Below, piece by piece: positions 39,461 to 52,366 of a stretch of DNA of 53,338 nt. Source of the stretch: a virus (lineage: Duplodnaviria > Caudoviricetes); the IMG/VR virus record IMGVR_UViG_3300043765_000021, positions 1 to 53,338 of that record, one strand, 5' to 3'. The number at the start of each line of letters is the position of its first letter. Within the stretch, counting starts at the first letter, position 1. Made by a program: the position numbers and the translations under genes. The notes below the pieces were generated by a model, which saw only the letters and a list, made by a program, of their open reading frames with translations, searched no databases and was not told where the DNA came from.

Positions 39461-39513
39461 TGGCAGTTCACGTAAGCCCCCCGCCGTAGCAGGGGGCTGC
39501 ACGTCAACTGTCA
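39461..39513. repeat. Intergenic hairpin element E1 (type B)
   Basis: TGGCAGTTCACGTAAGCCCCC...GGGGGCTGCACGTCAACTGTCA; near copy at 42370. Confidence 0.8.
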
Positions 39514-39514
39514 G

Positions 39515-39658
39515 CTACCAGCAATAGGTGTTGCAGGTGCGGAAGTTGCCGAAGCCGCTGCATGTGGTGGTGCAGCTATAGGCGTGGGCGACGACCGCCC
39601 AGCCGCTGATGGCAAGCACCGCAACGGTGATTGCCGCAAACAAGGTGCGCTTTGACAT
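39515..39658 (-). CDS. Secreted four-cysteine mini-peptide
   Basis: MSKRTLFAAITVAVLAISGWAVVAHA|YSCTTTCSGFGNFRTCNTYCW; GATGGAGG RBS; missed by the ORF track. Confidence 0.7.
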   Translation of the reverse strand: MSKRTLFAAITVAVLAISGWAVVAHAYSCTTTCSGFGNFRTCNTYCW

Positions 39659-39719
39659 AGGCTTTATCCTCCATCAGAGGCAGATTGCGCGGGGAAGCCC
39701 GCCCGCGCACGGGATGGGA

Positions 39720-40298
39720 TTAGCGGTCGATGACGCGCGCCAGATAGTCGATCACGAACCGCGTCACCAAAGGCTCGTTGCCCTCGGGGATGTGGATGCG
39801 CGTACCGGAATACGTCTCGACCCTGCCCAGTTCCGCCATCGCCTTGGCGTGTTGTTCGTAGCTGCCGTACACGTAGTCGTCGTTGACGCGACCCCAGAGC
39901 GTCCATGTGTTCAAATCGCCGCAGCGGATGCCAGAGGCTTGGTTGTAGTAGTTCACGTCGCGCGGCCCGCAGCCGAAGCACAGCCCCTCAAAGCGGTACG
40001 GGCGCTTCTGGTCGTCGTCAGCGATGTCGAGTGAGAACCAGAACTTGCCCTTGGCACTGCCGACATTGGCAGCGACCAGTTCCTTGAAGGCAGTCATAAG
40101 CTCGGCGTAGGCGTCTTCCAGCTTCTGCTTCTGCGCCAGCACCGCGACAGTATGCGCTGCGGCCTTGGCCCGCTTATCAGCGAGTGCGTGAAGCACGGAC
40201 GCCGCCAGCGACGGCTGTTCCGGCTGCGGATTGACGATCTTCCCCTCGCCGTCGTTATCGACAACGATGGTCGCAGTCCCTCTAACGATTTTACTCAT
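39720..40298 (-). CDS. Hypothetical protein
   Basis: GATGGAGGAG RBS. Confidence 0.65.
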   Translation of the reverse strand: MSKIVRGTATIVVDNDGEGKIVNPQPEQPSLAASVLHALADKRAKAAAHTVAVLAQKQKLEDAYAELMTAFKELVAANVGSAKGKFWFSLDIADDDQKRPYRFEGLCFGCGPRDVNYYNQASGIRCGDLNTWTLWGRVNDDYVYGSYEQHAKAMAELGRVETYSGTRIHIPEGNEPLVTRFVIDYLARVIDR

Positions 40299-40542
40299 TG
40301 GCTCCTCCATCCTTGATGAACTCGACTTTGGCAAAGTCGAAGTCACGGGTTTGCTCGAAATCCTCGTCACCCACCACATCGACCAGTGCGAAGTAGGTGG
40401 CGTCCTCGGCGTCCTCGATGCACTCGGCATCGCGCACGTCGCGTTCCTCCGCGATCTTGATCGCCTCCTCCATCGTCTCGGCCTCGATGTCGGGCTGCTT
40501 GACGCGGTAGAGGCGGTAAAGATGCACGTTATAGAGCGTCAT
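40291..40542 (-). CDS. Small acidic hypothetical protein
   Basis: Y.V.....IEA...EEA..IA pattern. Confidence 0.6.
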   Translation of the reverse strand: MTLYNVHLYRLYRVKQPDIEAETMEEAIKIAEERDVRDAECIEDAEDATYFALVDVVGDEDFEQTRDFDFAKVEFIKDGGANE

Positions 40543-40763
40543 AGCCGCGCGCTCCATTTCCACTTGGTACTATCCTCGATGGGATAGACCAGTGAGCCGC
40601 AATCCGCCGTTGGGCAGCGCCCGCACGGCGACGGATCGCCAGGAGTGAGCGAACACTCTCCGATCTCGTCCACTTCGGCAAAGGTGCCTGTCCAATTGCA
40701 GCCGCCGCACTCGCATGGCGTGTCGTCGGGCGGCTCCTCCATTTCGACGGTATAGATTGTCAT
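40539..40763 (-). CDS. Cys-rich hypothetical protein
   Basis: CECGGC.W...L.PG...P.GRCP..CGSL. Confidence 0.65.
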   Translation of the reverse strand: MTIYTVEMEEPPDDTPCECGGCNWTGTFAEVDEIGECSLTPGDPSPCGRCPTADCGSLVYPIEDSTKWKWSARL

Positions 40764-40993
40764 AGGTGCCAGCCCTCCTTGTCGTAAGTGGCGTGGGTGT
40801 CCGGTTTCGCCGCCTCGATGCGCGAGACGACGGTATGCACCGGCTCATCGAGGATGTTATTGCCCCACTCAAGCTCGCAGTTCTCGATCAGATGCTCGGC
40901 AAGGCCGCGCGCCTCATCGACGTTCTCGGCTGCGATCACCTCGCTGGTGTACTCGATGATGACGCGCTTGAAGGTGAACTCGTATTTTCTCAT
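40760..40993 (-). CDS. Small acidic hypothetical protein
   Basis: Y.F......IAAEN.DEA...A pattern. Confidence 0.6.
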   Translation of the reverse strand: MRKYEFTFKRVIIEYTSEVIAAENVDEARGLAEHLIENCELEWGNNILDEPVHTVVSRIEAAKPDTHATYDKEGWHL

Positions 40994-41406
40994 CGCGCCT
41001 TCTCCGTGCAACTGATGCAGATTTCGTTGAGATCGAAGCTGTAGTGTCCCTCGTCAAAACGCTGCTGCGCGATGTCCTGCGCCTTCTGCTCGGCCTCAGT
41101 CTCATCGTGCGCCTGGACGTGGATGTCGTCGCCAGAGCAAGCGAATAGCTGCACCGTGACGACGTAATCCACTTCGGGCTTTTCTTCGACAATCTCCTCG
41201 TCCTCGGTGAGGAACACCACCGGGTAGCCCTCCTCCTTGGCGGCGTCCTGCAAGTTGTCGATCCAGTTGAGGATGCCGTGCAGCGGCACGGTGTCGTCGC
41301 CGGTCGCCTGCGCGGTGTCGATGGCCTGGAGCAGCGCCAGCTTCTGTTTCGCCAGCATCGCCCAGTCGGTGTAACTGAACACCCGCTCGGTTGGATCCAT
41401 TGCCAT
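40990..41406 (-). CDS. Hypothetical protein
   Basis: DW..L..QK..L ... L.GIL..ID.LQD.A; C-terminal V.A.DE.EA..KA. Confidence 0.65.
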   Translation of the reverse strand: MAMDPTERVFSYTDWAMLAKQKLALLQAIDTAQATGDDTVPLHGILNWIDNLQDAAKEEGYPVVFLTEDEEIVEEKPEVDYVVTVQLFACSGDDIHVQAHDETEAEQKAQDIAQQRFDEGHYSFDLNEICISCTEKAR

Positions 41407-41588
41407 CAGCATCCCTCCCTCGGTTGGATTTTCAGCTTCCAGTGCAGCGGCAACCAGTACCGCTTCACCGGATTGCTGCCGAAGCTCGCCTCGATCCCGC
41501 CGCGATCCGGCTTGACGCTCTTCACCACCTCGCGGCCTGGAAACAGCACGTCGCCAACGCGCAGCTTGTCGGCTGTGACCGTCTTCAT
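41406..41588 (-). CDS. Hypothetical protein
   Basis: A..L.VGD motif; coupled. Confidence 0.55.
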   Translation of the reverse strand: MKTVTADKLRVGDVLFPGREVVKSVKPDRGGIEASFGSNPVKRYWLPLHWKLKIQPREGC

Positions 41589-41830
41589 CAGCTTTCCTCC
41601 CTTTCGATGAGAAATGCGATGAGGCCAGCGCGGCCCCGCGCGATGACGTGGCGGGTCATCCCCAAGTCCACGTACTCCCTGTCCTCAGAGGCGAACCACG
41701 TGATGTTGTCGTCGCGGCCCGTGCGCTGGATCTCGGGATAGCCCTCGCGCAGATAGGTCATTGCCTCCTTGCGCGTGGCGAACCACAAGCTCCATCCATC
41801 GTTGGTGGGGAAGACTTCCCAGATAATCAT
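41588..41830 (-). CDS. Hypothetical protein
   Basis: Coupled start/stop. Confidence 0.55.
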   Translation of the reverse strand: MIIWEVFPTNDGWSLWFATRKEAMTYLREGYPEIQRTGRDDNITWFASEDREYVDLGMTRHVIARGRAGLIAFLIEREES

Positions 41831-42351
41831 TTGCGCCGTCCTTCGCCTAGCGCCTCGCGGATGACGCGCAGCACGTCGTCGGCGTCCGGCTCAACGAAAC
41901 TCATTGCCGCGCTCACCTCGGTGATGAACTTTTCGGCCTGGACGAGCGCGTCACGCATCGTGTCGTTGCCGATCTGCGAGACGATGGCATAGCTGCCGTT
42001 GTCGATCTCCTCGATCCACTTCATCGCGGAGTACAGCACTTGCTCAAGGTCTGTGGTGTAGTCACTGAGGATGTCCACGCGGTTGCCGTAGACGAGGTAG
42101 ATCCAGCTATCGCACTGCGGGTAGACCGCCTCGCTCCCCGGCTTGTAACAGAACACATGGCTTTCGTCGGCCAAGGCGTCGACGTGTTCCATGACGAGGT
42201 TGATGTCATGGCTCGGAGCGACGTTCTCCTCGTCGCACTCCTGCTGGTAGTCGTCAACGATGAGGCCGTAGCCAGCTGCGATAAGGTCTTCGCAGAGCTT
42301 CTTGGCAATCGCGTACTCCATCGGGTGCATGTATTTGCGCTGGTAGGTCAT
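41827..42351 (-). CDS. Phage hypothetical protein
   Basis: WIYLVYGN..D.LSDY motif; GATGGAG RBS. Confidence 0.7.
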   Translation of the reverse strand: MTYQRKYMHPMEYAIAKKLCEDLIAAGYGLIVDDYQQECDEENVAPSHDINLVMEHVDALADESHVFCYKPGSEAVYPQCDSWIYLVYGNRVDILSDYTTDLEQVLYSAMKWIEEIDNGSYAIVSQIGNDTMRDALVQAEKFITEVSAAMSFVEPDADDVLRVIREALGEGRRK

Positions 42352-42369
42352 AGGCTTCTCCATCCTTGC

Positions 42370-42424
42370 TGGCAGTTCACGTAAGCCCTCCCGTTGGCGC
42401 GAGAGGGCTGCACGTCAAATGTCA
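42370..42424. repeat. Intergenic hairpin element E3 (type B)
   Basis: TGGCAGTTCACGTAAGCCCTC...GAGGGCTGCACGTCAAATGTCA; compensatory C-G to T-A change versus E1. Confidence 0.8.
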
Positions 42425-42691
42425 GAGCGTTATCGGATTAGGTGCCCAACTGAGGTAGTCGTTGCCGCGCTCGGTCATCGCGTCCTCAAGGTACTTGCCG
42501 TTGGCGACAAGCCACTCCTGCGCCTTGCCCAAGAGCGCCTCGTCCGCGCCGTCGAGTTCGTCGGGCAATTGATTGCTGATTACGTCTTCGGCGCAGAACG
42601 CGACCACCACCAGCCCCCGGTCGCGCAGCACGTCCAGAAGCTGGTGGTTCTCGTAACCCTCCAGGGCTTTGTGAAGTTCCTCGTTTGTCAT
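42422..42691 (-). CDS. Hypothetical protein
   Basis: GATGGAGGAG RBS. Confidence 0.65.
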   Translation of the reverse strand: MTNEELHKALEGYENHQLLDVLRDRGLVVVAFCAEDVISNQLPDELDGADEALLGKAQEWLVANGKYLEDAMTERGNDYLSWAPNPITL

Positions 42692-42702
42692 TGGCTCCTC
42701 CA

Positions 42703-43428
42703 TCAGTCGCCTATGAAATCGATGACGATCCGGCAGACGCGCCGGCCCCAGCCCTCCACGTCGCGGATTTCCGCCATGACGCTGTACTCGCCGTCGCCCA
42801 GCCCCGTCGAGAAACAGACGCCAGCGCGGTACTGGTGCGCCAGCGAGCCGTCCTCGCGGATAATGCGGCCCATGAAGGTGCCGTGCGTGTCCATGATGTC
42901 CTTGCCACCCGCGATCTCCTTGAGGAAATCCGTCCAGCCCTCGCGGCCGCGTGCCAAGTTGGTGTCCTTGATGAAGCACGGGTCGCCCACGATCAGCATC
43001 CCGGCGTCAACGCCCACCCGCCCGATCTCGATCATGCCGGTGTCGGCGTCGTCGCGCCGGAAGACGCCGTAGTCGTAGAGCTTCAGCACGTCCTTCGGTG
43101 CCAAGCTCCACGTCACATAGGCGTCGGGATCGCTGTCGTCGTACTCGTCATAGAGGCCGTTAAGCGCCATGCCCTCGTTGATGGCATACGCGATGCTCTC
43201 GCCAAAGTCCTCGTATCCCGGCCCCAGCAGCTTGTCGTTCTTATCCCAGCCTTCGGGCGGGTTGAGCTTGCCGACAGGCCAGCCCTTGGGCGCGACGACG
43301 CCTGGACGAATGCCGGTCGAGCCGCCGACAATGATGTCGTCCTCGATGTCGAACTGCACCGTCAGGTATTGGCTGCGCTCGCCCTTATGCGGGTAGATGA
43401 GGTGAACGTCGATGTAACGATCAGTCAT
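42703..43428 (-). CDS. Hypothetical protein with DUF4241-like C-terminal domain
   Basis: G.VGVDAG...VGDPC ... STG.GDG.Y.V. Confidence 0.6.
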   Translation of the reverse strand: MTDRYIDVHLIYPHKGERSQYLTVQFDIEDDIIVGGSTGIRPGVVAPKGWPVGKLNPPEGWDKNDKLLGPGYEDFGESIAYAINEGMALNGLYDEYDDSDPDAYVTWSLAPKDVLKLYDYGVFRRDDADTGMIEIGRVGVDAGMLIVGDPCFIKDTNLARGREGWTDFLKEIAGGKDIMDTHGTFMGRIIREDGSLAHQYRAGVCFSTGLGDGEYSVMAEIRDVEGWGRRVCRIVIDFIGD

Positions 43429-43643
43429 GTGACCCTCCAGCGTTGTGGAATGACGATAGCCCCGGCGTCGAGCTTCAAACCTCGATCCGCCGCGAGCCGA
43501 CTTAGCGCACCGGCAGCATGGGCCGCGCAGCAGTAGATCGCGCGCTTCTCGCCGTCGAATGTCGCGGTCTTCAGCGTGACGACGATCCCGTCGTCGCCCA
43601 CAAGCTCCAGGCAGTTGCCGTATTGACAGGTGATGGCAGGCAT
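43425..43643 (-). CDS. Small Cys-containing hypothetical protein
   Basis: CQYGNC...YCC..H; AGGAGG RBS. Confidence 0.55.
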   Translation of the reverse strand: MPAITCQYGNCLELVGDDGIVVTLKTATFDGEKRAIYCCAAHAAGALSRLAADRGLKLDAGAIVIPQRWRVT

Positions 43644-43858
43644 TAGTCCCTCCTAATTCCAAGGTGCTTCTCGATGCGCTCGACGCGTTTCACCAAGTCA
43701 TCGGCGTCGAGGTAACTCTCGATTGCCTTGACGATCTCGGCTTTGACTGAGCGGCTGTTCTCAGCCGCTCGCTGGCGTAGGCGTTCGCGAAAGCCGGGAG
43801 GTAAGCGAAGCAGATATTGATCGCCTTCGCGCACTACTTGTTTGCAGGAGGTGGTCAT
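43643..43858 (-). CDS. Arc-family ribbon-helix-helix DNA-binding protein
   Basis: QYLLRLP...RERL..RA.EN.RSV.AEIV..IE. Confidence 0.85.
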   Translation of the reverse strand: MTTSCKQVVREGDQYLLRLPPGFRERLRQRAAENSRSVKAEIVKAIESYLDADDLVKRVERIEKHLGIRRD

Positions 43859-44034
43859 TATGGCTCTTTGTGCGGCACGGCGCGCAGCAGACGCCCGTGG
43901 TCGATCAACAGCGCCTCGATGTCCTCGACTTTGACCGTCATGCGCTGAGTGCCGTTCTTCACTTTCTGCACGGCCTGGACGAGTGCCTCGAAAGAGGCGC
44001 GCGGGCATGAGAGTTCGATGGGGTCGCCATTCAT
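43858..44034 (-). CDS. Hypothetical protein
   Basis: Coupled; V.V..LL.DH motif. Confidence 0.55.
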   Translation of the reverse strand: MNGDPIELSCPRASFEALVQAVQKVKNGTQRMTVKVEDIEALLIDHGRLLRAVPHKEP

Positions 44035-44306
44035 CGACCGGCCTCGCGCATCACACAGATGACTTCGCTCGGTCGCACCACGAACTCGGCATAGCCATAG
44101 CACCGCACTGTCGGCCAGTGGCGGTCGTCGTTGGTGAACCCGTTGACCGTCCGCACCTCGACGCGTGTCGGCCAACGGCACGTAGCTTTGAATTGAATGC
44201 GATCACCCACGCCATAGCTTCCCGGCGGCGGGTATTCGTAGCTCGCGCCGCCGCCGCGACCGCTCGTCTGTCTTGGGTAGTGCGCGCCCAGATCGTGGTC
44301 TGCCAT
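44031..44306 (-). CDS. Hypothetical protein (SH3-like)
   Basis: Y.VGDRI.F...R.V.G....V.......V...EV. Confidence 0.55.
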   Translation of the reverse strand: MADHDLGAHYPRQTSGRGGGASYEYPPPGSYGVGDRIQFKATCRWPTRVEVRTVNGFTNDDRHWPTVRCYGYAEFVVRPSEVICVMREAGR

Positions 44307-44307
44307 G

Positions 44308-44958
44308 TCAGTTGTCCTTCCATCCTTGCTCGCGGTGAAATTCCGCCTTCAACTCGACGCGCTCCTTTCGCAGCTGCGTGATTTGCTCCAAGGCGTCGGT
44401 CACATACCCACGGAACACCGCCATCAATTCGGGCGTGTAGCTCGCGCGGGCTGCGCGTCCCTCCGCGTGGAACGTCCCCAGGAGACGTCGCCGGATCGCG
44501 GCAACCTCGTCGTCCTTCTCGTCGTATTGCAGCTTCGCGTGTGATGCGCGGCGATAGTCGCGCTCTTCCTCCGCGTAGACTTCGGCGATGCGATCCGCCG
44601 CTTGGGCCGCTTCCAGCCTGTCGTCGTAGAACGTATCGACGGCGATCAGCGCGGCCTTGCCGTTAAACGGGTCTTCCATCCCGGCGAGGAAACGCCATTC
44701 GCCGCGCCAGCGCAGCGCAAAGACGACGCCACGCGCAAGCTCGTCCATGCACCCGTCATCCTCAAGGAACCAGCCTTTGTGATCGATCATGCGGTAATAG
44801 CCCGCGTCTCTCGATACCTCGTCGCAATAGCCCTCGCTGCGCAGCCCGCAGGAACGCTCTGGATGCTCAAACCACCGCAGGGTGCTGCTACCCTGCCTAA
44901 AGGGCTTTCCCACGCTCTGGCGGGCTTCCCTGACGCGCGCTGTGGGTACGTATCGCAT
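44308..44958 (-). CDS. Phage hypothetical protein
   Basis: GWF.D...RG.V..L....FLAG...AA..AD..AE..AEEER; GATGGAG RBS. Confidence 0.7.
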   Translation of the reverse strand: MRYVPTARVREARQSVGKPFRQGSSTLRWFEHPERSCGLRSEGYCDEVSRDAGYYRMIDHKGWFLEDDGCMDELARGVVFALRWRGEWRFLAGMEDPFNGKAALIAVDTFYDDRLEAAQAADRIAEVYAEEERDYRRASHAKLQYDEKDDEVAAIRRRLLGTFHAEGRAARASYTPELMAVFRGYVTDALEQITQLRKERVELKAEFHREQGWKDN

Positions 44959-44980
44959 CGTCTCGTCTCCATCATCGTCT

Positions 44981-45027
44981 TGGCACCCCAAAACCCCCAC
45001 GCCACGACGCGTTGGGGGCTATTTGGG
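44981..45027. repeat. Intergenic hairpin element E4 (type A)
   Basis: TGGCACCCCAAAA-CCCCCACGC-CACGAC-GCG-T-TGGGGG. Confidence 0.75.
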
Positions 45028-45107
45028 TTCGCCTTGCAGAGGCTATGATCGATGTTATTTCTTCATGCCGTCCTCCTGTCGCTCCCGCGCTTTGGGCTTG
45101 CTATCGC

Positions 45108-45320
45108 CTAGCCGCGCGGCCTCGTCTGAATGCCGTACCGCGTCTGGTTGTCGAGCAGCACAAGCTCCTCGCCCTCCAGCACGGGCGGTGCGCCCAGATG
45201 GATCTCGCCCTCGTCGAGCTTCCTCTGCACGTCGCCAGCGTCAAAGCCATAGACGCGGTAATAGCGTTCAGCCTGTTTCTGTGTCGGGAAATGGCTCGTC
45301 CCGTAGATCGAGTAGAACAT
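45108..45320 (-). CDS. Hypothetical protein
   Basis: GTSHF...A.RYY...KL..GEIH.G.P. Confidence 0.6.
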   Translation of the reverse strand: MFYSIYGTSHFPTQKQAERYYRVYGFDAGDVQRKLDEGEIHLGAPPVLEGEELVLLDNQTRYGIQTRPRG

Positions 45321-45340
45321 GCTCCGCACCCTCTTGTCAA

Positions 45341-45568: not shown

Positions 45569-45579
45569 GTGCTTCTCCT

Positions 45580-45774: not shown

Positions 45775-45775
45775 G

Positions 45776-46223: not shown

Positions 46224-46272
46224 TGGCACCCTTCAAGCTCCTGCGGCGTCACCCGTTAGGAGCTTGTCGGGG
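46224..46272. repeat. Intergenic hairpin element E5 (type A)
   Basis: TGGCACCCTT-CAAGCTCCTGCGG-CGTCAC-CCG-T-TAGGAGCTTG-TCGGGG. Confidence 0.8.
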
Positions 46273-46303
46273 AGCGCGGTGCTACCCCCGTATCGCCGTC
46301 GCT

Positions 46304-46561: not shown

Positions 46562-46570
46562 GTGCTTCTC

Positions 46571-46966
46571 CTATTCGTAGTAAGGACGCGTCTCGGGAAA
46601 GCCAGCTGGTGCGGTGCGTCCGTCCATCACCCGCGCGCTGTACCGCCCGTCGCTCGCCACAGAGCTAATCGGGCGTCGGCCTTTGTTGAGCGTGGCGTCG
46701 AGCAGCATGTTGAGCCGGTAGCAGTAGTCGCTGGCGCGCTCCTCGCTAATGAAGGTACGCATCTGGCGCACAAGCTCGCCGCACTGATACCACCAGCCGC
46801 CTTCCTCGCACCCGCCGTAGGCAAGCTCGACGAGGTAGACCGCGACCGCGTAGCGGCAAGGCCGCGCCCGCTCCTCCTCAAAGTCCTTGCCGCAGTCGTG
46901 GCACTCCCACGCGTTGGTGTCGAACTTCGCGATGTTCCGCGAGCCGCAATGAATGCACTCTTCCAT
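46571..46966 (-). CDS. Phage hypothetical protein
   Basis: N-terminal CxxC/CxxC; AYGG.EEGGWWY..G; P..RP.YE. Confidence 0.7.
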   Translation of the reverse strand: MEECIHCGSRNIAKFDTNAWECHDCGKDFEEERARPCRYAVAVYLVELAYGGCEEGGWWYQCGELVRQMRTFISEERASDYCYRLNMLLDATLNKGRRPISSVASDGRYSARVMDGRTAPAGFPETRPYYE

Positions 46967-47130
46967 CAGCGCACCTCCTTCACGTAATGCTCGGACAACA
47001 GGATCTCGGCACACGCAAGCTCGCGAACGACTTGCTCTGCCCAGCGCGCGGCTTCCTTGTCCTTGCCGCACTGTTTGTACGCGACCGCCTTGGCGAGCGC
47101 GCGGTAGAGGTTCACGCGGTCGATCTCCAT
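46966..47130 (-). CDS. Small hypothetical protein
   Basis: RALAKA.AYK.CGK...A..WA; GGAGG RBS. Confidence 0.6.
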   Translation of the reverse strand: MEIDRVNLYRALAKAVAYKQCGKDKEAARWAEQVVRELACAEILLSEHYVKEVR

Positions 47131-47339
47131 CAGTGTCCTCCCGCTTCCCACAGCGCCACGATGTTTATCGGCAGCAGCCGCACCAAGCGGTACGTCTTGT
47201 CCAGGCGCACGCTCACCCACTTGCGGCCCACCTTCTCGACCGTGCCGAAACGGTCGCCACGCATCCAATAGTCGGTTGCCGGATGCAACTCGACGCGATC
47301 CGTGGCGCGGATCATGTGAATGCTCAAACCCTCGGTCAT
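47130..47339 (-). CDS. Hypothetical protein (SH3-like)
   Basis: RVELHPATD.WMRGDR.G.V.KVG...V.V.LD. Confidence 0.65.
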   Translation of the reverse strand: MTEGLSIHMIRATDRVELHPATDYWMRGDRFGTVEKVGRKWVSVRLDKTYRLVRLLPINIVALWEAGGH

Positions 47340-47341
47340 CA

Positions 47342-47692
47342 TTACCTCACTGGTTCCATCAGCCAATGCTCGCCCGTCGTCTGGGTGAGCGTCACCTTGC
47401 GCTTGGGCGTGCCGCGCTCGCCCACCTCCTGCCCAAACCACCCGTAGAGGATGTCAGGCAGCACGTTCACTTTGCTGCCCTCCTCGCGCAGTGTGTTGAT
47501 CGCCACCTTGGCGACGAACGCCACGTAGAACGCGTTGCCGATCCGCACCTCGACATCGCCCTTCGGCAAGCCCACGCCGTAGCCTTTCTTCGGGCTTCCA
47601 GGCAGGAAGAGGATGGGCTTCGTCCCATTGCGGGCAATCGGGCAGAGGATGCGCAACGGCGCATCCCCCTCCTGGCCGACAATCTCGACCAT
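47342..47692 (-). CDS. Hypothetical protein
   Basis: GGAGG RBS, coupled. Confidence 0.55.
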   Translation of the reverse strand: MVEIVGQEGDAPLRILCPIARNGTKPILFLPGSPKKGYGVGLPKGDVEVRIGNAFYVAFVAKVAINTLREEGSKVNVLPDILYGWFGQEVGERGTPKRKVTLTQTTGEHWLMEPVR

Positions 47693-48186
47693 CAGCCAAA
47701 CCTCCAATCACCCGCACCGCAATACGCATCCCAATTGCCGTCTTCGCGCGCGGCGAGCCGTCGATCCTCCGCGTTCTGCGCCAGTTGGCGTATCCGCCGC
47801 TGCGTCACCACGCGCTCGCCGTGACAGGCCGCGCACGTCTGATCGTAGTCGCCGCGCCAATAGCTCTCGGCAAAATCCGGGTCGTCGGCAAAGTCTTGCG
47901 CCGTCAGTCCGTGTGCGTCGATGTTGGGGTTTACCGTCGTCCCATGCCCGCGACAGGCTGGACAGACTTCAAACTCCTCGTCCTCGCGACTGCGCTCGTG
48001 AACAAACCGCTCGGCCTCGCCGCGCGTGGCGAATGTCTCGTCCACTGGCTCGTCGGCGTCCTCATCGAAGACGACGAAGATGGTCGCGTCCTCGTCTGGC
48101 ACCTCGTACCAGCCATTGCCCTCGCCTTTCGTCTCGGCGTGAGCCTCGACCGTGTAGCGTGGCTTCTCTTCGCGTCTCGTTCTCAT
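47692..48186 (-). CDS. Hypothetical protein with CxxCxGxG zinc finger
   Basis: CPACRGHG..VNP.ID..G...Y..G.YD..C..C.G.RV. Confidence 0.7.
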   Translation of the reverse strand: MRTRREEKPRYTVEAHAETKGEGNGWYEVPDEDATIFVVFDEDADEPVDETFATRGEAERFVHERSREDEEFEVCPACRGHGTTVNPNIDAHGLTAQDFADDPDFAESYWRGDYDQTCAACHGERVVTQRRIRQLAQNAEDRRLAAREDGNWDAYCGAGDWRFG

Positions 48187-48274
48187 GCTCTTCCTCCATC
48201 ATCAGCATCGGGCGTCCGATTGCTGGCGATGGCGGCGGGTGTTGTTGTTCTTCCCGCCGCACACGCAAGCAGTC

Positions 48275-48625
48275 CTAGCTCTGTTGGTGGTTGAACTTGA
48301 TCGTCCGCGCCCAGTTGTAAGCCGCCTTGCGACAGCACGGCCCGCTACAGAAGAACTCGTCAGCCCAACTCTCGCCGTCCCATATGCCGAAGTGCGCGAC
48401 GCGCGGCTTGGCCTCGCCTTCGCGCTTGTTCCAGTAGGACACGCTCACCACCACCTCATTGACCTTGGCTTGGCACTGAGCCTTGGAATAGAGCGGGCCG
48501 AATACGTGTCGGTCGAGGCCAGCATGACCGTCGCCTTCGCGGCGCACCCATACGATGTCGGTGAACTTCGCTATGGGCTTGCCGCAATACATGCACAAGG
48601 GACGCGTTGCGCTCTTGTATGCCAT
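48275..48625 (-). CDS. Zinc-binding hypothetical protein
   Basis: P.C.YCGKPI ... FCS..C; GGAGG RBS. Confidence 0.65.
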   Translation of the reverse strand: MAYKSATRPLCMYCGKPIAKFTDIVWVRREGDGHAGLDRHVFGPLYSKAQCQAKVNEVVVSVSYWNKREGEAKPRVAHFGIWDGESWADEFFCSGPCCRKAAYNWARTIKFNHQQS

Positions 48626-48626
48626 A

Positions 48627-48887
48627 TCACCCTCCAAACAGCGCGATGAGAACCCACGCCACCACGAACAGGATGAGGAAGCACAGCGCGACGAAGCCCA
48701 GACCACGCAGGAACCCGTCATACTCTCTGTCGAGCTTCGCGACTGTCGCCCTGTCGGGATGTTTGCCCGTGAACCACGGCCACAGATCCAACAGCCCCGG
48801 CTTGCCGCTGTAACGAACGGCGTTGATGTCCCCGACATAGGTGGTGTTGGGGAACTCGTCGTCGGGATGCATTGGCGGCTTTTTCAT
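48627..48887 (-). CDS. Hypothetical membrane protein
   Basis: C-terminal TM helix. Confidence 0.55.
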   Translation of the reverse strand: MKKPPMHPDDEFPNTTYVGDINAVRYSGKPGLLDLWPWFTGKHPDRATVAKLDREYDGFLRGLGFVALCFLILFVVAWVLIALFGG

Positions 48888-49102
48888 CACCAGTTCCCCA
48901 CTGCCTTGGCGTTCTCGATGAGCCATTTGTTGCCCGCGCAGTAAGCGCGTATTCCGGCGCGCGGATCGTTGCCGCGATGCGCCTTCCTCGCATCCGCCAC
49001 CCGCTGGGAAATCCCCCGGCTGGCTTCGTGCTGTTCCATGCGCCGCACCGCATGATGATCCTCACGCGGATCGCGCCGCCGCAATTCGTCGAACTCGTCC
49101 AT
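48887..49102 (-). CDS. Hypothetical protein
   Basis: GATGGAG RBS; GNKW..ENA.A.GN. Confidence 0.65.
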   Translation of the reverse strand: MDEFDELRRRDPREDHHAVRRMEQHEASRGISQRVADARKAHRGNDPRAGIRAYCAGNKWLIENAKAVGNW

Positions 49103-49133
49103 TTCTCGTCTCCATCAAATGCCAGTTGGCTCC

Positions 49134-49182
49134 TGGCACCCCGAAAGCCCCTCGCCGTCACGCGTAGGGGCCGTCAGGAGGG
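49134..49182. repeat. Intergenic hairpin element E7 (type A)
   Basis: TGGCACCCCGAAA-GCCCCTCGC-CGTCAC-GCG-T-AGGGGC. Confidence 0.8.
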
Positions 49183-49198
49183 CTATTTGCCCTAGAGG

Positions 49199-49624
49199 CT
49201 AGTCACGTAGCCAATCGGGAACATCGCGTCCCAGCGCCTTCAGAACGCTCCGAGAGGCGAACGAGTAGTTCTTGCCGTCGTCGGCACTGGCAAGGATGGG
49301 TCGCTTCGTCGCCCGCGCCGCAAGCCCGCTAATGGTGAAGGTCTGCATATGACCCGCCACCTTGAACGTCTTGCCCAGATCGTCGGCCTGGAAGCCAAAG
49401 AGCTTGGCGTTGACCTTGAACGTCTCTGCGGCCTTGGACGCCGCAACGCCCGTGTCCTCGTTGACGACGCCCACCTCCAGGCTAACCGTGACCAGATTGC
49501 TCTGGTAGCGCATCTTGCCCAAGGTGATTTGGACGCCCACGCTCTCGGCAAACTGCGACAGCACCGCATTCAATTGCTCGCGCAACAGATCGCACGCGCT
49601 GGGATCGAACCGTGTGTATTTCAT
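49199..49624 (-). CDS. Phage hypothetical protein
   Basis: FG...DDLGKTF....FTI.GL..R..K.PI.....GK.Y.F; GATGGAG RBS. Confidence 0.7.
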   Translation of the reverse strand: MKYTRFDPSACDLLREQLNAVLSQFAESVGVQITLGKMRYQSNLVTVSLEVGVVNEDTGVAASKAAETFKVNAKLFGFQADDLGKTFKVAGHMQTFTISGLAARATKRPILASADDGKNYSFASRSVLKALGRDVPDWLRD

Positions 49625-49656
49625 GCTCTCGTCTCCATCATACCACATTGCCATCC

Positions 49657-49704
49657 TGGCACCCTTCAAGCCCCTGCGACCGGATCGTTAGGGGCTTGTC
49701 GGGT
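49657..49704. repeat. Intergenic hairpin element E8 (type A)
   Basis: TGGCACCCTT-CAAGCCCCTGCGA-CCGGA-TCG-T-TAGGGGCTTG-TCGGGT. Confidence 0.8.
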
Positions 49705-49720
49705 CATTCCACGTGGAATG
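49705..49720. promoter_or_regulatory. CATTCCACGTGGAATG palindrome (parS-like site 6)
   Basis: Perfect 16-bp palindrome abutting hairpin E8. Confidence 0.75.
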
Positions 49721-49933
49721 CTACGTCGCGTCGAGCACCCTGGCGCTATTGACCGTGTGCCGCTCGACCAAGGTCTTGAGGCACTCCGCGAAGCTCACCG
49801 CGTCATCGAACGTCACGGCGTTGACGATGCAGCACTGCTGGTACGTCATGCGGTCATCCACCACCGCCACGTCATAGACGTGGCTCCCGTCCGATAGCGC
49901 CTTCTTTACGATGTTGATGGTCAAATCGGCCAT
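49721..49933 (-). CDS. Hypothetical protein
   Basis: L.DGS.VYDV motif; AGGAG RBS. Confidence 0.65.
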   Translation of the reverse strand: MADLTINIVKKALSDGSHVYDVAVVDDRMTYQQCCIVNAVTFDDAVSFAECLKTLVERHTVNSARVLDAT

Positions 49934-49936
49934 GTC

Positions 49937-50341
49937 CTACTCCTTCTCGCTTTCGATCCAATCCGCCGCGTGGTTGTCCCGGTAGTCCACCAGCGCCATC
50001 GCGAACTTGTGCAGGTCCGGCAGCGCCGCGTCGTCCCAATCCTCGATCTGCGCCATCACGTCGATAAGCGCATCCACCGCTTGGCACAGCCTTGGCGTCG
50101 TCCCCTTGGGCGGGGCCGCGACGGACGGCGTAGCTCCCCGATAGCGGTTGAGCCGCGCCACCTCGGCGTCGATGTCGTCCTGGTGGTCGCTGGTCTTGAT
50201 GATCTTGAAGTCGCGCATTGGCCGCTTCTGGCTATACGCGTAGTCCTCGCGCTCAAACTCCACGTTCTCCCTGTCATAGTCGCCAAACTGCGGGTGCCAC
50301 GCACCCTCCTCCAGGCTCAACAGCGTGTAGTAAGTCGTCAA
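49937..50341 (-). CDS. Phage hypothetical protein
   Basis: YYTL.....W.PQFGDYDR..V..E; GAGGAGG RBS with TTG start. Confidence 0.65.
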   Translation of the reverse strand: MTTYYTLLSLEEGAWHPQFGDYDRENVEFEREDYAYSQKRPMRDFKIIKTSDHQDDIDAEVARLNRYRGATPSVAAPPKGTTPRLCQAVDALIDVMAQIEDWDDAALPDLHKFAMALVDYRDNHAADWIESEKE

Positions 50342-50354
50342 CGCTCCATCCTCC

Positions 50355-50735
50355 TCAGTAGACGCCAACGGCATACGCGCCGTTGTGCGGGGTAAAAACC
50401 ATGTACGCCGCGCCCGTCACCTTCATGCGGGTGTCGGTGCGGAAGAACCACGGGTCGCCCGCGATGTCGTAATCGACCCGCACCATCGCCCGCGATCTGG
50501 AAGCGACCGTCAGGAATGACAGCGACGGCACGATCTCGCCAATGGCGTAGGCGTGTACCTTCCTGCGCGGCTTGCCGTTAGGCATTGGGTGGGTGTTGCA
50601 CCACACCCACCGCGCGAGGCTCACAGAGAACGTCACGTCGCGCATGACGCACCCTTGCGGCATGTAGGTAGGTGTGGCGTTGGGCTTCTCAGCGACCGCC
50701 CAGACGCGCCGTGTGAGGTTCCAGTAGCAATGCAT
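50355..50735 (-). CDS. Phage hypothetical protein (paralogue family, copy 3)
   Basis: Y.NL...W.V...DV.F.VS....R.VHA.A.G...V.Y. Confidence 0.7.
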   Translation of the reverse strand: MHCYWNLTRRVWAVAEKPNATPTYMPQGCVMRDVTFSVSLARWVWCNTHPMPNGKPRRKVHAYAIGEIVPSLSFLTVASRSRAMVRVDYDIAGDPWFFRTDTRMKVTGAAYMVFTPHNGAYAVGVY

Positions 50736-50750
50736 TTCTTCTCTCCATCC

Positions 50751-50800
50751 TGGCACCTCTTAAGGCCCGCTCCGTCGCCGGAAGCGGGCCTGTCGAGGCG
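50751..50800. repeat. Intergenic hairpin element E9 (type A)
   Basis: TGGCACCTCTTA-AGGCCCGCTCCG-TCGC-CGG-A-AGCGGGCCT-GTCGAGG. Confidence 0.8.
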
Positions 50801-50812
50801 TGGCGGGTACGT

Positions 50813-51457
50813 CTACCCGTAGATCACCACGTCCATCAGCGAGGTGAGCCACGTCTGATCTTCCAGCGCCGCCTCGCTCTTCTCACCCTCACCCCAGACC
50901 GCGTTCGTCTCGCACCCGCGCTGGATGACGATGGCCTCCAGGGTTTTCATCATGGGCAGCATTTCGTCGGGAATGCCCTCGACGCAGTGCGCCGTCTCCA
51001 GGGCGTCCATCGCCTCCTCGATGGCCTCGCTGCACCCGATCCCCACCACTTCGGGATCTTGGTAGATGCCGCGCTCGCCGTCCTTGTCGTTGCGTATCAC
51101 CACGTCGCCCGCATAGAGGTAGATGTCGCGCTCCCGCGTCTCCTCGTCGTCCTCGGCGTAGAAGCGGTCGCTATTGTCCTCGCAGTTCGCCAGCACCGCT
51201 TCCGCCCGCTCCAGGGCCGCGCTCGGCAGCACCACGCTGCGCGATCCGCCACGCGGCAGGTCTGTCCACTCCACGTCGCTGTTGCCCACCGGCAGCGCCT
51301 CCAGCGCCTTCCACAGCACGTGATAGCCGTGGATGGTCGCCACGCTCTCCGGGTCATCGATTTGGAAGTCGTCCCTCGCCACTTCCCACATGCCCTCGAT
51401 CATCGACTGATACACCGCGAAGGCTTGCGGTGTGCGAAACCGGATCGTCGTCGTCAT
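50813..51457 (-). CDS. Acidic hypothetical protein
   Basis: Long ORF following element E10. Confidence 0.65.
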   Translation of the reverse strand: MTTTIRFRTPQAFAVYQSMIEGMWEVARDDFQIDDPESVATIHGYHVLWKALEALPVGNSDVEWTDLPRGGSRSVVLPSAALERAEAVLANCEDNSDRFYAEDDEETRERDIYLYAGDVVIRNDKDGERGIYQDPEVVGIGCSEAIEEAMDALETAHCVEGIPDEMLPMMKTLEAIVIQRGCETNAVWGEGEKSEAALEDQTWLTSLMDVVIYG

Positions 51458-51477
51458 GTCATCCATCCTTCTCTCTC

Positions 51478-51526
51478 TGACACCCCAAAAGGCGCGACAG
51501 CATGACCTGTACGCGCCCGTTGGGTG
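51478..51526. repeat. Intergenic hairpin element E10 (type A)
   Basis: TGACACCCCAAAA-GGCGCGACAG-CATGAC-CTGT-A-CGCGCC-CGTTGGGTG. Confidence 0.8.
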
Positions 51527-51541
51527 ATGGTGGGGTTCGCT

Positions 51542-51898
51542 CTAGAACTCTGCCGGATGCCGCCTCGGTCGCGCGCTCTCAGGCTCCAACTGGAACTCGA
51601 CGCCAAACACATGCACCGGGGTCGATCCCGTGCCGCACTGCTTCACGTGCCACGCTGGACGGGTTTTCTCATCGAGGTACACAAGGATGCCCATCCACCC
51701 ATGCTCGACAAAGTAGCCGCACACCTCACCCGCTCCCAGGTTGTTGAGGAGCTTGTGGACGCGTGTCCCGATCGCCGGTGGCTCCAGATCGCCAGACCAG
51801 CGCGGGCGACCGCTGCCGTCGTCGTTAGGCTCCCCGTCCTTGAAGGTGACGCGCTGGTACGGGGGGATGCTGTCGTGATGCTCGTAGATCAATGCCAT
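51542..51898 (-). CDS. Phage hypothetical protein
   Basis: WSG...PPAIG..V....N.LG...V.GYFVE.GW.G..V....P.W.......FG.E. Confidence 0.7.
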   Translation of the reverse strand: MALIYEHHDSIPPYQRVTFKDGEPNDDGSGRPRWSGDLEPPAIGTRVHKLLNNLGAGEVCGYFVEHGWMGILVYLDEKTRPAWHVKQCGTGSTPVHVFGVEFQLEPESARPRRHPAEF

Positions 51899-51914
51899 TT
51901 CAATCTCCATGCTC

Positions 51915-51963
51915 TGGCACCCCAAAAGGCCCGCCACCATCACGTGAGCGAGCCTTAAGGGAG
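51915..51963. repeat. Intergenic hairpin element E11 (type A)
   Basis: TGGCACCCCAA-AAGGCCCGCCAC-CATCAC-GTG-A-GCGAGCCTT-AAGGG. Confidence 0.75.
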
Positions 51964-51978
51964 CTATCGGTTAGCCCG

Positions 51979-52302
51979 TCAGTCGGGCATGAAATACTTG
52001 TTCAAATCCCACGCCGCCCACGTCAGGCCCGGGTCGCCCGTGTGGTGGAACAGCACCGCCACCCGGAACTCCAACGGCATCCGCGCCTCCAGCGCGTGCT
52101 TCTCGCACAGCGCCAGCGCCTTGTACGCGTCCTCCTGCGACAACGCCTTCATGTCGCGCATCTTGACGTCGCAGAACTGACGCTTCCTCGGGTTCCAGCC
52201 AAACCACTTGAACGCCTGGCGGCTATCAATCTCGCGCATCTGCACCCCGTAGAGGTTCGACGACGGCATCTGCGGTGCTGCTTGTTTGCGTGTCCTTGCC
52301 AC
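51979..52302 (-). CDS. Hypothetical protein
   Basis: GATGGAG RBS with GTG start. Confidence 0.6.
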   Translation of the reverse strand: MARTRKQAAPQMPSSNLYGVQMREIDSRQAFKWFGWNPRKRQFCDVKMRDMKALSQEDAYKALALCEKHALEARMPLEFRVAVLFHHTGDPGLTWAAWDLNKYFMPD

Positions 52303-52318
52303 TTCAATCTCCATCTGT

Positions 52319-52366
52319 TGACACCCCTCAAGCCTCTGCGACCGGATCGTTAGAGGCTCAAGGATG
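52319..52366. repeat. Intergenic hairpin element E12 (type A)
   Basis: TGACACCCCTCA-AGCCTCTGCGA-CCGGA-TCG-T-TAGAGGCT; 18-bp core identical to E8, with a compensatory change next to it. Confidence 0.8.

Follow-up and report, generated by a model that had tools for sequence, protein, structure and literature searches.

Hairpin linkers between small genes of a soil phage as possible leaky terminators joined to a translation leader

The 53,338-nt stretch of phage DNA analysed here (the window) contains a family of repeated intergenic hairpins whose pairing is kept between copies, which show a strand bias and which carry an invariant UU and box; the element is also present in other phage contigs, and breakpoints between two of these, L028 and L029, fall at the linkers. 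We assign a probability of roughly 45% to the reading that the elements are sense-strand RNA hairpins, each joined to a conserved translation leader, that would act as attenuators (intrinsic terminators that leak) and that, being repeats, would also serve as linkers for homologous recombination. Termination or attenuation, protection of the message and a role for the box are what we infer from this sequence arrangement.

The DNA derives from an uncultivated soil phage, in which the linkers separate many small early genes. All ten elements located by an earlier, sequence-only reading were found at their starts in the window, and we scored them with R1, a covariance model built from the eight type-A copies. 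The elements and two further features are as follows.

52319..52368, minus strand: type-A linker e52319; R1 53.9 bits; hairpin, UU and GGGGUGUCA, with ATGGAG 4 nt downstream
51915..51965, minus strand: type-A linker e51915; R1 56.8 bits; one U-G pair in the main stem (minus-sense fold)
51478..51528, minus strand: type-A linker e51478; R1 58.0 bits; tail UGUCA, with UGACA 16 nt downstream
50751..50800, minus strand: type-A linker e50751; R1 50.5 bits; GCGA loop and 6-bp outer stem
49657..49706, minus strand: type-A linker e49657; R1 59.7 bits; then a mini-hairpin, UGCCA GGA UGGCA
49134..49183, minus strand: type-A linker e49134; R1 55.6 bits; then UGCCAG-N7-CUGGCA
46224..46274, minus strand: type-A linker e46224; R1 66.1 bits
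44981..45030, minus strand: type-A linker e44981; R1 56.6 bits; 3' 17 nt match those of copies in L028 without a difference (alignment A7)
42370..42427, minus strand: type-B linker; fold -26.6 kcal/mol (shuffle mean -15.8); 5' arm contains the upstream gene's stop codon
39461..39518, minus strand: type-B linker; fold -37.3 kcal/mol (shuffle mean -18.7); R1 7.3 bits
48196..48275, minus strand: two hairpins, unlike the linkers in sequence, immediately before AUGAUGGAG; a bulged A on the 5' side of the second; z -3.57, 0/200 shuffles folding as well
36832..52315, minus strand: GATGGAG-rich span holding 21 of 23 minus-strand GATGGAG motifs, mostly 5-9 nt upstream of a start codon

Read on the plus strand, the type-A copies begin with TGRCACC (TGGCACC in six, TGACACC in two) and the two type-B copies with TGGCAGT, which fits the TGRCA start claimed for all. 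The stems quoted in the sequence-only reading are present (AGCTCCT/AGGAGCT, AGCCCCT/AGGGGCT, AGCCTCT/AGAGGCT, GGCCCGCT/AGCGGGCC and GGCGCG/CGCGCC), as are the single unpaired A or U in every type-A copy, located where the main stem gives way to an apical stem of 3-4 bp, the 6-nt loop C-R-Y-S-A-C (plus strand) common to five copies, and both outer stems, ACCC/GGGT and CCTC/GAGG. The bulged stem measures 11-13 bp, varies in sequence and carries loops of 4-6 nt; with the outer stem of 3-6 bp the helix totals 16-20 pairs, and an internal loop or mismatch separates outer and upper stems in seven of the eight type-A copies. The run X1 contig graph has a fork within e50751, at 50761-50790.

The pattern TGRCACCYNNNAAR matched 7 times forward, 0 times in reverse and 0 times in a backward control; allowing one mismatch it matched 9 times, against 3.75 +/- 2.02 in shuffles, 3 of 100 of which reached 9. 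R1 recovered exactly the eight type-A copies (50.5-66.1 bits), all on the minus (coding) strand, the next-best match (15.4 bits) being an element read on the opposite strand. The proposal that all ten elements form one family needs correction: type B, with two copies, is distinct in sequence, the copy at 39461 scoring only 7.3 bits with R1. Two looser variants had also been proposed: that at 48196 is a significant double hairpin, whereas the fold at 39678 is no better than shuffles (z -0.61) despite an 8-bp GC hairpin within its 70 nt. A match to a known Rfam family had been named as a possible counter-finding; no family matched the elements, which is consistent with the earlier suggestion of an unlisted cis-regulatory RNA.

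Several lines of evidence indicate that pairing itself is maintained. Element cores fold at -24.8 to -37.3 kcal/mol, compared with mononucleotide-shuffle means (n=100) of -13.1 to -19.9 (sd 2.3-3.2). In the model-fitted alignment 86.4% of cells are paired, against 73.7 +/- 2.4 in shuffles (0/500 reach the observed value) and 37-58% in slid-alignment controls; the covariation score is 0.42 against 0.20 (0/500), and double changes occur in 8 of 16 pairs (2/500 shuffles). Because compensatory double changes occur in the otherwise near-identical copies at 46224, 49657 and 52319, we conclude that pairing is under selection, and because compensation keeps pairing, a site for a double-stranded DNA-binding protein is disfavoured. 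The claim that structure rather than sequence is selected thus stands in its first half only, since sequence is strongly conserved as well, in the UU and GGUGYCA of 20/20 copies. Nor is the functional strand as unassignable as had been thought: the three near-identical copies do carry an A-C mismatch that is a G-T pair on the plus strand, but the minus-sense fold is the more stable in 8/10 copies. G-U pairs make up 14/144 pairs in the minus-sense fold versus 8/145 in the plus-sense fold, and in 9/12 relatives' copies a sense-strand G-U pair closes the main stem at its base.

These observations bear on whether the linkers are functionless repeats, spread or homogenised by recombination and retained because they are harmless. 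In favour of this, each genome's copies closely resemble one another, L028 and L029 have an invariant main stem, three window copies are near-identical and breakpoints lie at linkers. The compensatory changes just described nevertheless show selection for pairing, and genomes as different as 46% and 64% GC have the core in common, their flanks having shifted to the local composition; we give this explanation a slim chance.

One feature that points to termination is the UU that immediately follows the GC stem. Together with the GGUGYCA box it is invariant in 20/20 copies from four contigs (alignment A7, columns 39-40 for UU), yet its 5' partners vary, the pairs 10-40 and 11-39 being unpaired in 2/8 and 1/8 cells, and UU is thus conserved as sequence, beyond pairing. 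Among window type-A copies the T run is 2 nt in four, 3 nt in one and 4 nt in three, and a simple terminator scan flagged 0/10 window elements; in L028 and L029 the run is 4-5 T in 11/11 copies, and the scan flagged 3/6 and 3/5 linkers, respectively. In L029 the hairpin recurs twice more, near 4172 and near 4652, this time lacking an outer stem; a run of 6-7 T comes after it and, ~85 nt further on, the ATGGAG ribosome site seen elsewhere. On sequence grounds this L029 hairpin has the textbook form of an intrinsic terminator.

We propose that each element would work in mRNA (equivalent to the window minus strand) as a cis-acting linker of two parts. The first would be the GC-rich, one-bulge hairpin of 11-13 bp with U residues at once after it, a factor-independent terminator of reduced strength; the second would be a leader comprising the GGGGUGYCA box, in some copies a small UGCCA/UGGCA hairpin, then GAUGGAG and the next gene's start codon. 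Transcription entering from the right end of the genome would be partly halted at every linker, the upstream message would be shielded by the hairpin remaining at its 3' end, and the leader would supply each following gene with an identical translation start region. The position of the elements supports this arrangement: as had been claimed, each follows a stop codon and precedes the ribosome site that serves the next gene on the minus strand, although the motif itself is exact in only 9/10, with ATGGAG 2-21 nt downstream of nine and ATGGAT at e51478. GATGGAG, the start-associated ribosome-site motif, occurs 23 times on the minus strand versus 2 on the plus strand. Sigma-70-like promoters numbered 0 between 38.5 and 53.3 kb (3.1 +/- 1.7 expected), and none were found at the L028 and L029 linkers, which fits attenuators that are read through within an operon. 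A sigma-54 promoter identity failed a defining test. Against the attenuator reading stand the short T run in the window with its 0/10 scan passes, and the GGUGYCA box, which a plain terminator does not need and which attenuation leaves unaccounted for. A terminator after nearly every gene with no promoter behind it would also be unusual and would require leakiness or an antiterminator. Moreover, the U run is engaged in the outer stem, where it pairs with A residues upstream, so that the U residues could simply be the lower part of a long hairpin. The sequence turned up in no RNA run.

A terminator, ranked first here, was absent from the candidates of the sequence-only reading, which included RNase III-type processing sites in the style of T7 early genes. 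In that scheme a host double-strand RNase would cut a long irregular hairpin, separating cistrons and leaving a protective 3' hairpin. The elements do separate the cistrons within a block of small genes that share one strand, their pairing is kept while stem sequence varies freely, their 16-20 pairs approach the two-turn substrate described in the available text of PMC3867540, and the loop or mismatch between outer and upper stems recalls the internal loops at which, in the same source, single-strand cuts leave stabilising 3' hairpins. By contrast, a UU that is invariant even where unpaired is a feature of terminators and not of RNase III sites, the outer stem has just 3-6 bp and is missing from the L029 hairpins with 6-7 T, and the lower part of the upper stem is all G-C in the relatives, when for the E. 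coli enzyme G-C at proximal-box positions 2 and 4 blocks binding or cleavage (PMC3867540, available text). We consider processing unlikely, though with an appreciable chance. There is a smaller chance that a dedicated phage or host RNA-binding factor reads the bulge and GGGGUGYCA, as a translational operator, for antiterminator loading or as a standby ribosome site. Consistent with such a factor, the box does not vary among contigs whose GC content ranges from 46% to 64%, a bulge interrupts the 5' arm of the stem 3-5 bp beneath the loop in 8/8 window copies and about 8/12 relatives' copies, UGCCA is followed by UGGCA in 10/12 relatives' copies, and pairing of the box with an assumed 16S rRNA tail motif, at -7.2 to -9.5 kcal/mol, is as good as that of annotated ribosome sites (-6.6 to -9.5). 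The loops differ, however (6-nt GUSRYG, UCCGG and GCGA; 4-nt in relatives), and so offer no sequence to read; the window and L028/L029 have no common candidate protein; a full 5-bp tail partner is present in 5/10 window copies against a weakly exceeded background of 25-28%; and the mini-hairpin shows double changes in 0/4 pairs in relatives.

The linker occurs in three other viral contigs (46-52% GC), and gene-content differences between L028 and L029 start and stop at linkers, as the idea of cassette-like punctuation had led one to expect. Five of the six inner ends of collinear blocks in L028 lie <=36 nt from a linker (binomial p ~0.04 by our estimate, a weak value given that linkers with 36-nt flanks cover ~40% of the gene block), and one extra L029 gene sits exactly between two linkers (2993-3393). 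Proteins shared between the window and these two breakpoint relatives were not detectable. Breakpoints fall at varied spots in and around linkers, even inside the first codons of genes, which fits homology rather than one fixed crossover point; unrelated genes have nothing but their first 6-10 codons in common downstream of the linkers e52319 and e51915, and again at L028 3925-3973 versus L029 4771-4819. Since the linkers are repeats, recombination between them would insert, delete or exchange the intervening genes. The earlier candidate of single-stranded DNA recombination sites is supported in L028 and L029 as regards its cassette punctuation, through ordinary repeat homology, but not in its attC or HUH features. 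We see very little prospect that the elements are attC-like or HUH-type sites or N4-type template-strand hairpin promoters, even though they are uniformly oriented hairpins with a single extrahelical base and cassette-like gene spacing, and the genome is 56% complete, so that a cognate enzyme could sit outside the window. No integrase, HUH nuclease or RNA polymerase was found among 50 window ORFs scanned against Pfam. The available text of PMC5027507 gives attC two or three extrahelical bases spaced 6 bp and an unpaired central spacer of 5-6 nt; our elements have one bulge and no such spacer, and GTTRRRY matched singly in 1/10 and as an R-box pair in 0/10. N4 promoters have stems of 5-7 bp with loops of 3 nt, carry specific bases at positions -11, -10 and -8 and go with a vRNAP of 3500 aa (PMC4496689, available text), at odds with bulged, variable stems of 11-13 bp, loops of 4-6 nt and no vRNAP in the window.

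Compared with known systems, the linkers resemble canonical Rho-independent terminators in that U comes directly behind a GC-rich stem-loop whose 5' flank is rich in A, and some relatives' copies (in L028 and L029) pass a simple scan; they differ in the window U run of 2-4, with 0/10 passing, and in constituting, as ordinary terminators do not, a single sequence family that shares a box and leader downstream. The RNase III sites of T7 early genes are irregular hairpins of about two turns between the cistrons of a polycistronic transcript. The linkers share with them an intercistronic, irregular hairpin of kept structure and variable sequence, but show terminator features (a GC-rich stem with UU directly behind it and, in L029, variants whose T run is long). 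PeSLs, the promoter-early stem-loops of T4-like phages, are likewise concentrated among small genes of unknown function, have a G/C stem-loop that terminates transcription and act as points of homologous exchange at which indels between close relatives begin or end, as far as the available accounts go (Arbiol et al. 2010, PMC2839356; Comeau et al. 2014, PMC4122927). PeSLs carry a strong sigma-70 early promoter (same accounts), whereas none was found in our linkers, whose hairpin is longer (11-13 bp plus outer stem) and precedes an invariant GGUGYCA box, in phages that, judged by their genes, are not T4-like. The SAS and extended SAS of Cluster K mycobacteriophages, in the available text of Pope et al. 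2011 (PMC3203893), also combine a short conserved motif with a ribosome site upstream of starts, are confined to the non-structural arm in one orientation, and are preceded at about half of sites by inverted repeats with a variable spacer. Membership of that group was rejected, the 13-bp SAS giving 0 matches at up to 2 mismatches. Pope et al. noted that departures between left and right repeats generally do not support RNA pairing and favoured DNA-binding proteins; our linkers, unlike the extended SAS, keep pairing by compensation and have U residues after the hairpin.

All ten of the ~50-bp intergenic hairpins that the sequence-only reading had placed in the window were confirmed in position, and we refer to each as e followed by its start coordinate. 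Eight are type-A copies, and the two type-B copies (e39461 and e42370) are alike each other and unlike type A. On the sense (minus) strand, in 5' to 3' order, a type-A copy has the upstream stop codon, 12-30 nt in which a small hairpin is often found, and an outer stem (3-6 bp) that in most cases leads over a small internal loop into a GC-rich main stem (7-9 bp). Above the main stem a single A or U stays unpaired on the 5' side, below the apical stem (3-4 bp) and its 4-6 nt loop. After the hairpin come UU extending up to UUUU, the box GGGGUGYCA, 2-21 nt, the ribosome site (G)AUGGAG, 5-9 nt and the start codon; we call the hairpin with its UU, box (GGUGYCA) and ATGGAG ribosome site the linker. 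The hairpins have stems of 11-13 bp, loops of 4-6 nt and folding energies of -24.8 to -37.3 kcal/mol, and the element cores fold 3-5 standard deviations better than shuffles. R1, a covariance model of the eight type-A copies, was searched against both strands of the whole window with filters off and returned these eight copies, all on the minus strand, at 50.5-66.1 bits, with the next best match at 15.4 bits and type-B e39461 scoring 7.3 bits. Their density is highest at the right end: the segment 49.1-52.4 kb has six elements, 39.4-46.3 kb has four and 33-39 kb has none. In many cases a second, small hairpin or palindrome separates the stop codon from the main hairpin (e.g. 49707-49722), and the gene before e51915 has its stop codon inside the loop of such a small upstream hairpin.

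The proposal that selection acts on pairing in these hairpins was borne out by covariation and double changes that exceed those of shuffles. In the model-fitted alignment, 86.4% of cells pair compared to 73.7 +/- 2.4 in shuffles (0/500), the covariation score is 0.42 versus 0.20 in shuffles (0/500 reach 0.42), double changes occur at 8 of 16 pairs (2/500 shuffles), and sliding the partners along the alignment lowers pairing to 37-58%. A hand-anchored table of the ten bulge-adjoining pairs, which come from each copy's own fold and are hence paired by construction, has 80 of 80 cells pairing versus 54.7 +/- 3.0 after the copies' 3' letters have been exchanged at random. When the 5' arm of one copy is set against the 3' arm of another, a mean of 6.4 of 10 positions pair, and arms are fully interchangeable in only 2 of 56 ordered copy pairs. 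The trio at 46224, 49657 and 52319 is near-identical elsewhere and carries U-A, C-G and U-A pairs at differing stem positions, which indicates that pairing is under selection and, in turn, speaks against recognition of the site in double-stranded DNA by a dimeric protein.

We assign function to the sense (minus) strand with moderate confidence. The sequence-only reading had held that the strand could not be assigned; fold energies and G-U counts favour the sense strand, whereas one mismatch points the opposite way. Specifically, 8 of 10 copies fold more stably in the minus sense, the summed type-A energies (n=8) are -237.0 kcal/mol in the minus sense versus -214.7 kcal/mol in the plus sense, G-U pairs number 14/144 in minus-sense folds versus 8/145 in plus-sense folds, and related linkers on other contigs carry a sense-strand G-U at the main-stem base in 9 of 12 copies. 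The counter-evidence is the trio's A-C mismatch at the apical-stem base, which is G-T on the + strand.

Two scans of viral contigs with a pattern of box plus ribosome site brought to four, counting the window, the viral contigs from which the linker is known among those searchable by pattern:

Linker-bearing viral contigs found by pattern scan
L028: 8.0 kb, 46.5% GC
L029: 7.4 kb, 45.5% GC
L041: 13.2 kb, 52% GC

R1 matched at full length, on one strand only, five times in L028, five times in L029 (weakest 11.5 bits) and once in L041, and a sixth L028 copy was recognised by eye. Two further contigs with one pattern match each were taken as chance or degenerate and excluded from alignments: L030 has no R1 match and no GC hairpin by eye, and in L040 the match lies in GC-rich gene-like sequence with no upstream hairpin by eye. 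The 5' half of the relatives' linker consists of an A-rich flank, a 6-bp GC stem, a bulged A in most copies and a covarying apical stem of 5 bp, 4 of whose 5 pairs show double changes. In its 3' half, the loop (4 nt) leads into 4-5 U and GGG(G)UGCCA, and 3-4 nt further on come (U)GGCA, AAAA and AUGGAG. In an alignment of 20 copies from the four contigs, two T directly 3' of the main stem and the G-G-T-G-x-C-A of the box are invariant in 20/20 copies, and because the 5' partners of both T vary and are at times unpaired, the U residues are kept as sequence. The 3' 17 nt of e44981 are identical to L028 copies; identity of a 17-nt core across contigs of 64% and 46% GC is not what one would usually expect of a plain terminator and suggests a further constraint. 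The box is the 5' arm of a small hairpin in the relatives, without covariation there, and this hairpin is weakly supported in the window. Complementarity of the box to a 16S tail motif equals that of annotated ribosome sites, a weak comparison, and a downstream UGGCA partner for the tail is found in 5 of 10 window copies versus a 25-28% background, which is too weak to claim. A tRNA-like 3' CCA or RNase P site was rejected, since the CCA is base-paired in relatives and is replaced by UCA in two window copies.

L041 and the window have two early proteins in common (29-33% identity), none was detected in common between the window and L028 or L029, and neither megablast of window 44000-52500 nor blastn of L028 3300-5100 matched the phage collection. 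The window has no close relative among isolated phages. Its helicase matches four viral loci at 40-53% identity, whose whole records hold no R1 match better than E 0.6, and one distant locus in an alphaproteobacterial MAG; a search of 401 sampled alphaproteobacterial genomes with the pattern TTGGGGTGCCAN{2,12}ATGGAG gave 0 matches. Gene 44308-44958 matches three metagenome loci at 40-47% identity, one of which (L013) has no upstream hairpin by eye, and a search with gene 50813-51466 gave no related locus in viral contigs. A 9-mer survey of three distant relatives revealed no comparable repeat family; one helicase-found distant relative (G001, comprising L019 and neighbours) carries a tandem array with a ~36-37 bp period at ~43.1-44.4 kb. 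In L041, an ArdC-like anti-restriction and metallopeptidase gene (1783-2673) lies one gene downstream of the single linker.

The window spans one whole IMG/VR virus record (53,338 bp, linear, 63.6% GC) with a CheckV completeness of 56%, nearly half of the genome being absent. It contains no tRNA genes and is organised as follows:

Genes and domains of the window
1 to ~32 kb, + strand: collagen-repeat tail fibres, glycosyltransferase, exonuclease, Gp3-like factor, helicase and primase; further GcrA-like and PAPS-reductase domains
1-1460, + strand: first ORF, open at the contig start
26994-27713: DUF1376 domain
~30688-30849, + strand: GcrA cell-cycle-regulator domain, just 3' of the primase gene
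33-53 kb, minus strand: ~40 small genes, almost all without known family
35413-35784, minus strand: small two-helix-turn-helix protein (sigma-70 region 4; Mor-like in PHROGs)
50355-50756 and 52609-53031, minus strand: paralogues of the gp82 family of mycobacteriophage L5, among the elements; a third relative is in L041

The match of the first ORF to a PHROG profile (3431 positions, function unknown) is confined to the C-terminal part of the profile, so the ORF probably encodes the last portion of a very large virion protein. The two-helix-turn-helix protein is a possible candidate for a right-arm transcription regulator. The GcrA and DUF1376 domains, together with an alphaproteobacterial MAG as the sole genome-contig relative, may hint at an alphaproteobacterial host, which we offer as a hint and not as a finding.

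L028 and L029 are 86-91% identical in their flanks and have these collinear blocks:

Collinear blocks of L028 and L029
L028 388-3420 = L029 7-2992
L028 3324-3681 = L029 3394-3753
L028 4242-4595 = L029 5134-5487
L028 4732-6643 = L029 5527-7442

An extra L029 gene (2993-3393) sits exactly between two linkers, and the unrelated sequences L028 3682-4241 and L029 3754-5133 also both lie between linkers. Five of six inner block ends in L028 fall within 36 nt of a linker, in suggestive agreement with the earlier expectation that breakpoints coincide with elements; linkers and their 36-nt flanks cover an estimated ~40% of the gene block, so this count is suggestive rather than strong (binomial p ~0.04). 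Junctions also fall just inside genes: two genes that otherwise differ match over their first ten codons, at L028 3925-3973 and L029 4771-4819. Similarly, the unrelated window genes after e52319 and e51915 have only the ribosome site and first six codons (MEIE, V/M, A) in common, which indicates that the repeated unit extends into coding sequence:

Common gene starts in the window
52289-52318, minus strand: start of the gene after e52319
51885-51914, minus strand: start of the gene after e51915

For the window itself, the sole strain-variant breakpoint is a fork at 50761-50790, inside e50751, in the contig graph of soil metagenome run X1, which is possibly the source sample and so not independent. 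In contigs of two soil metagenome runs, ~50791-51096 (the 3' part of gene 50813-51466) is present in diverged form, with 94 letters replacing 97 at 50998-51096. Read joints from 43696 to 46123 (side 21) and from 52260 to 52394 (side 34) were left out for short sides or unknown content. Homologous exchange between repeats has been shown for the promoter-early stem-loops (PeSLs) of T4-like phages (PMC2839356). The breakpoint pattern would fit such an exchange and not a site-specific reaction.

Intrinsic terminators have a GC-rich stem-loop with U immediately 3' and an A-rich 5' flank. The linker's U tract measures 2-4 T in the window and 4-7 T in relatives, and a simple terminator scan flagged 0 of 10 window elements and 6 of 11 linkers in L028 and L029, namely the five-T ones. 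L029 contains two extra copies of the hairpin, near 4172 and 4652, in which 6-7 T replace the box and are followed by ~85 nt and then the same AAAAUGGAG ribosome site; the ~85-nt stretch has a promoter-like TTGCTT-N17-TAAAAG by eye, which the promoter scan did not flag. With two linker classes in one genome, L029 thus carries the hairpin both as a textbook terminator-then-promoter and as a short promoterless form. The second-class L029 linkers lie at 4160-4300 and 4640-4790, and the gene 3' of the latter (4792-5160) encodes pentapeptide-like repeats. In the window, no sigma-70-like promoter was found in 38.5-53.3 kb. A look for RNA runs containing the sequence returned none. The most likely mechanism, at a probability of about 0.45 and hence tentative, has an attenuating terminator and a standard translation leader joined in one unit that doubles as a recombination linker. 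The elements would then act as successive leaky terminators (attenuators) within a single leftward transcription unit, which would begin beyond the right contig end. This mechanism leaves the role of the invariant box without explanation.

The main rival, which we regard as unlikely, is that the hairpins serve as RNase III-type processing sites. The elements do have the T7-type feature of an irregular ~two-turn hairpin between cistrons, with 16-20 pairs and, in all but one of the eight type-A copies, an internal loop. The box has its place in another, equally improbable proposal, according to which the linker would be a promoterless portable expression cassette of 46-64% GC phages, the box would be the site of a dedicated factor, and the whole would constitute a new cis-regulatory RNA class that also supplies the homology for a gene-cassette system working without an integrase outside T4-like phages. 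The cassette would combine an attenuating terminator with a standard translation start region and, as its invariant box, UU-GGG-GUGYCA, which either a processing nuclease or an antiterminator would recognise. Should the leading reading of an attenuating linker hold, one short module would account, in this group of uncultivated phages, for the graded expression of many small accessory genes in a long series as well as for the gain, loss and exchange of those genes with their neighbours left intact. The module is absent from Rfam, and a model of it would aid the annotation of gene boundaries and plastic regions in such phages.

Searching the whole window against Rfam at gathering score gave 0 matches, so that the check proposed earlier turned up no described family; at E <=5 there were five weak matches at chance level, two of which touch an element:

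Weak Rfam matches touching an element
50762-50852: Trp_leader, over e50751, 20.5 bits (gathering 41, E 3.1)
39503-39642: isrG, at the edge of e39461, 17 bits (gathering 100)

We did not find the motif described in full-text literature on phage intergenic stem-loop repeats, with subscription journals outside this search and the letters not queried. Two candidates of the sequence-only reading fell away. Integron attC sites have R' (RYYYAAC) and R'' (GTTRRRY) boxes at the hairpin base, two or three extrahelical bases, a 6-bp stem spacing and an unpaired central spacer of 5-6 nt (PMC5027507), whereas the ten elements contain one single R-box match and no pair, a single bulge in each copy, internal loops measuring 0-3 nt and no central spacer. 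The 50 window ORFs compared with Pfam, and 20 compared with PHROGs, yielded no integrase, HUH nuclease, RNA polymerase or RNase in this 56% complete record. The hairpin promoter of the N4 virion RNA polymerase has a 5-7 bp stem, a 3-nt loop and specific bases at -11, -10 and -8 (PMC4496689), and stem length, loop size and conserved bases are all wrong in the elements, which have 11-13 bp stems with a bulge, 4-6 nt loops and variable stem sequence. A + strand sigma-54 promoter (TGGCAC-N5-TTGC) was also rejected: no more than 3 of the 8 type-A copies match it with up to 2 mismatches, both in TT, the window holds 50 matches versus 58.4 +/- 7.5 in shuffles and so no excess, and the orientation would be antisense to all genes.

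Downstream of the hairpin, GATGGAG is a start-associated ribosome-site motif in its own right. It occurs 23 times on the minus strand versus 2 on the plus strand, 21 of the 23 within 36.8-52.3 kb (36832-52315), mostly just upstream of start codons, those of hairpin-less genes included, and its sub-families share 14-19 nt identity. The idea that ATGGAG is a true start codon or the start of a leader peptide was rejected as a general rule, because whether it is in frame depends simply on its distance from the real start, either 6 nt or 7-8 nt. At the other end of the intergenic region, TAG stops cluster at elements: 7 of 39 right-arm genes end in TAG, 6 of the 7 directly upstream of an element, and two further elements come after lower-confidence ORFs ending in TAG. 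CTAG is scarce in the window, with 27 observed versus ~179 expected from base composition.

TAG stop codons at elements
39515, 46304, 49199, 49721, 50813 and 51542
also 45108 and 52385

Of the known systems, the PeSLs of T4-like phages and the start-associated sequences (SAS/ESAS) of Cluster K mycobacteriophages come closest. As in PeSLs, the linker places a stem-loop, a Shine-Dalgarno sequence and a start codon between small ORFs, and indel or replacement breakpoints fall at the motifs, this coincidence being seen in the comparison of L028 with L029 only; in contrast to PeSLs, it has no sigma-70-like promoter in the motif, either across 38.5-53.3 kb of the window or at the L028 and L029 linkers. 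The 13-bp SAS of Cluster K, GGGATAGGAGCCC, has 0 matches at <=2 mismatches, and the Cluster K authors report no compensation in their inverted repeats (PMC3203893). Being without the PeSL promoter and without the SAS motif, the element belongs to neither system.
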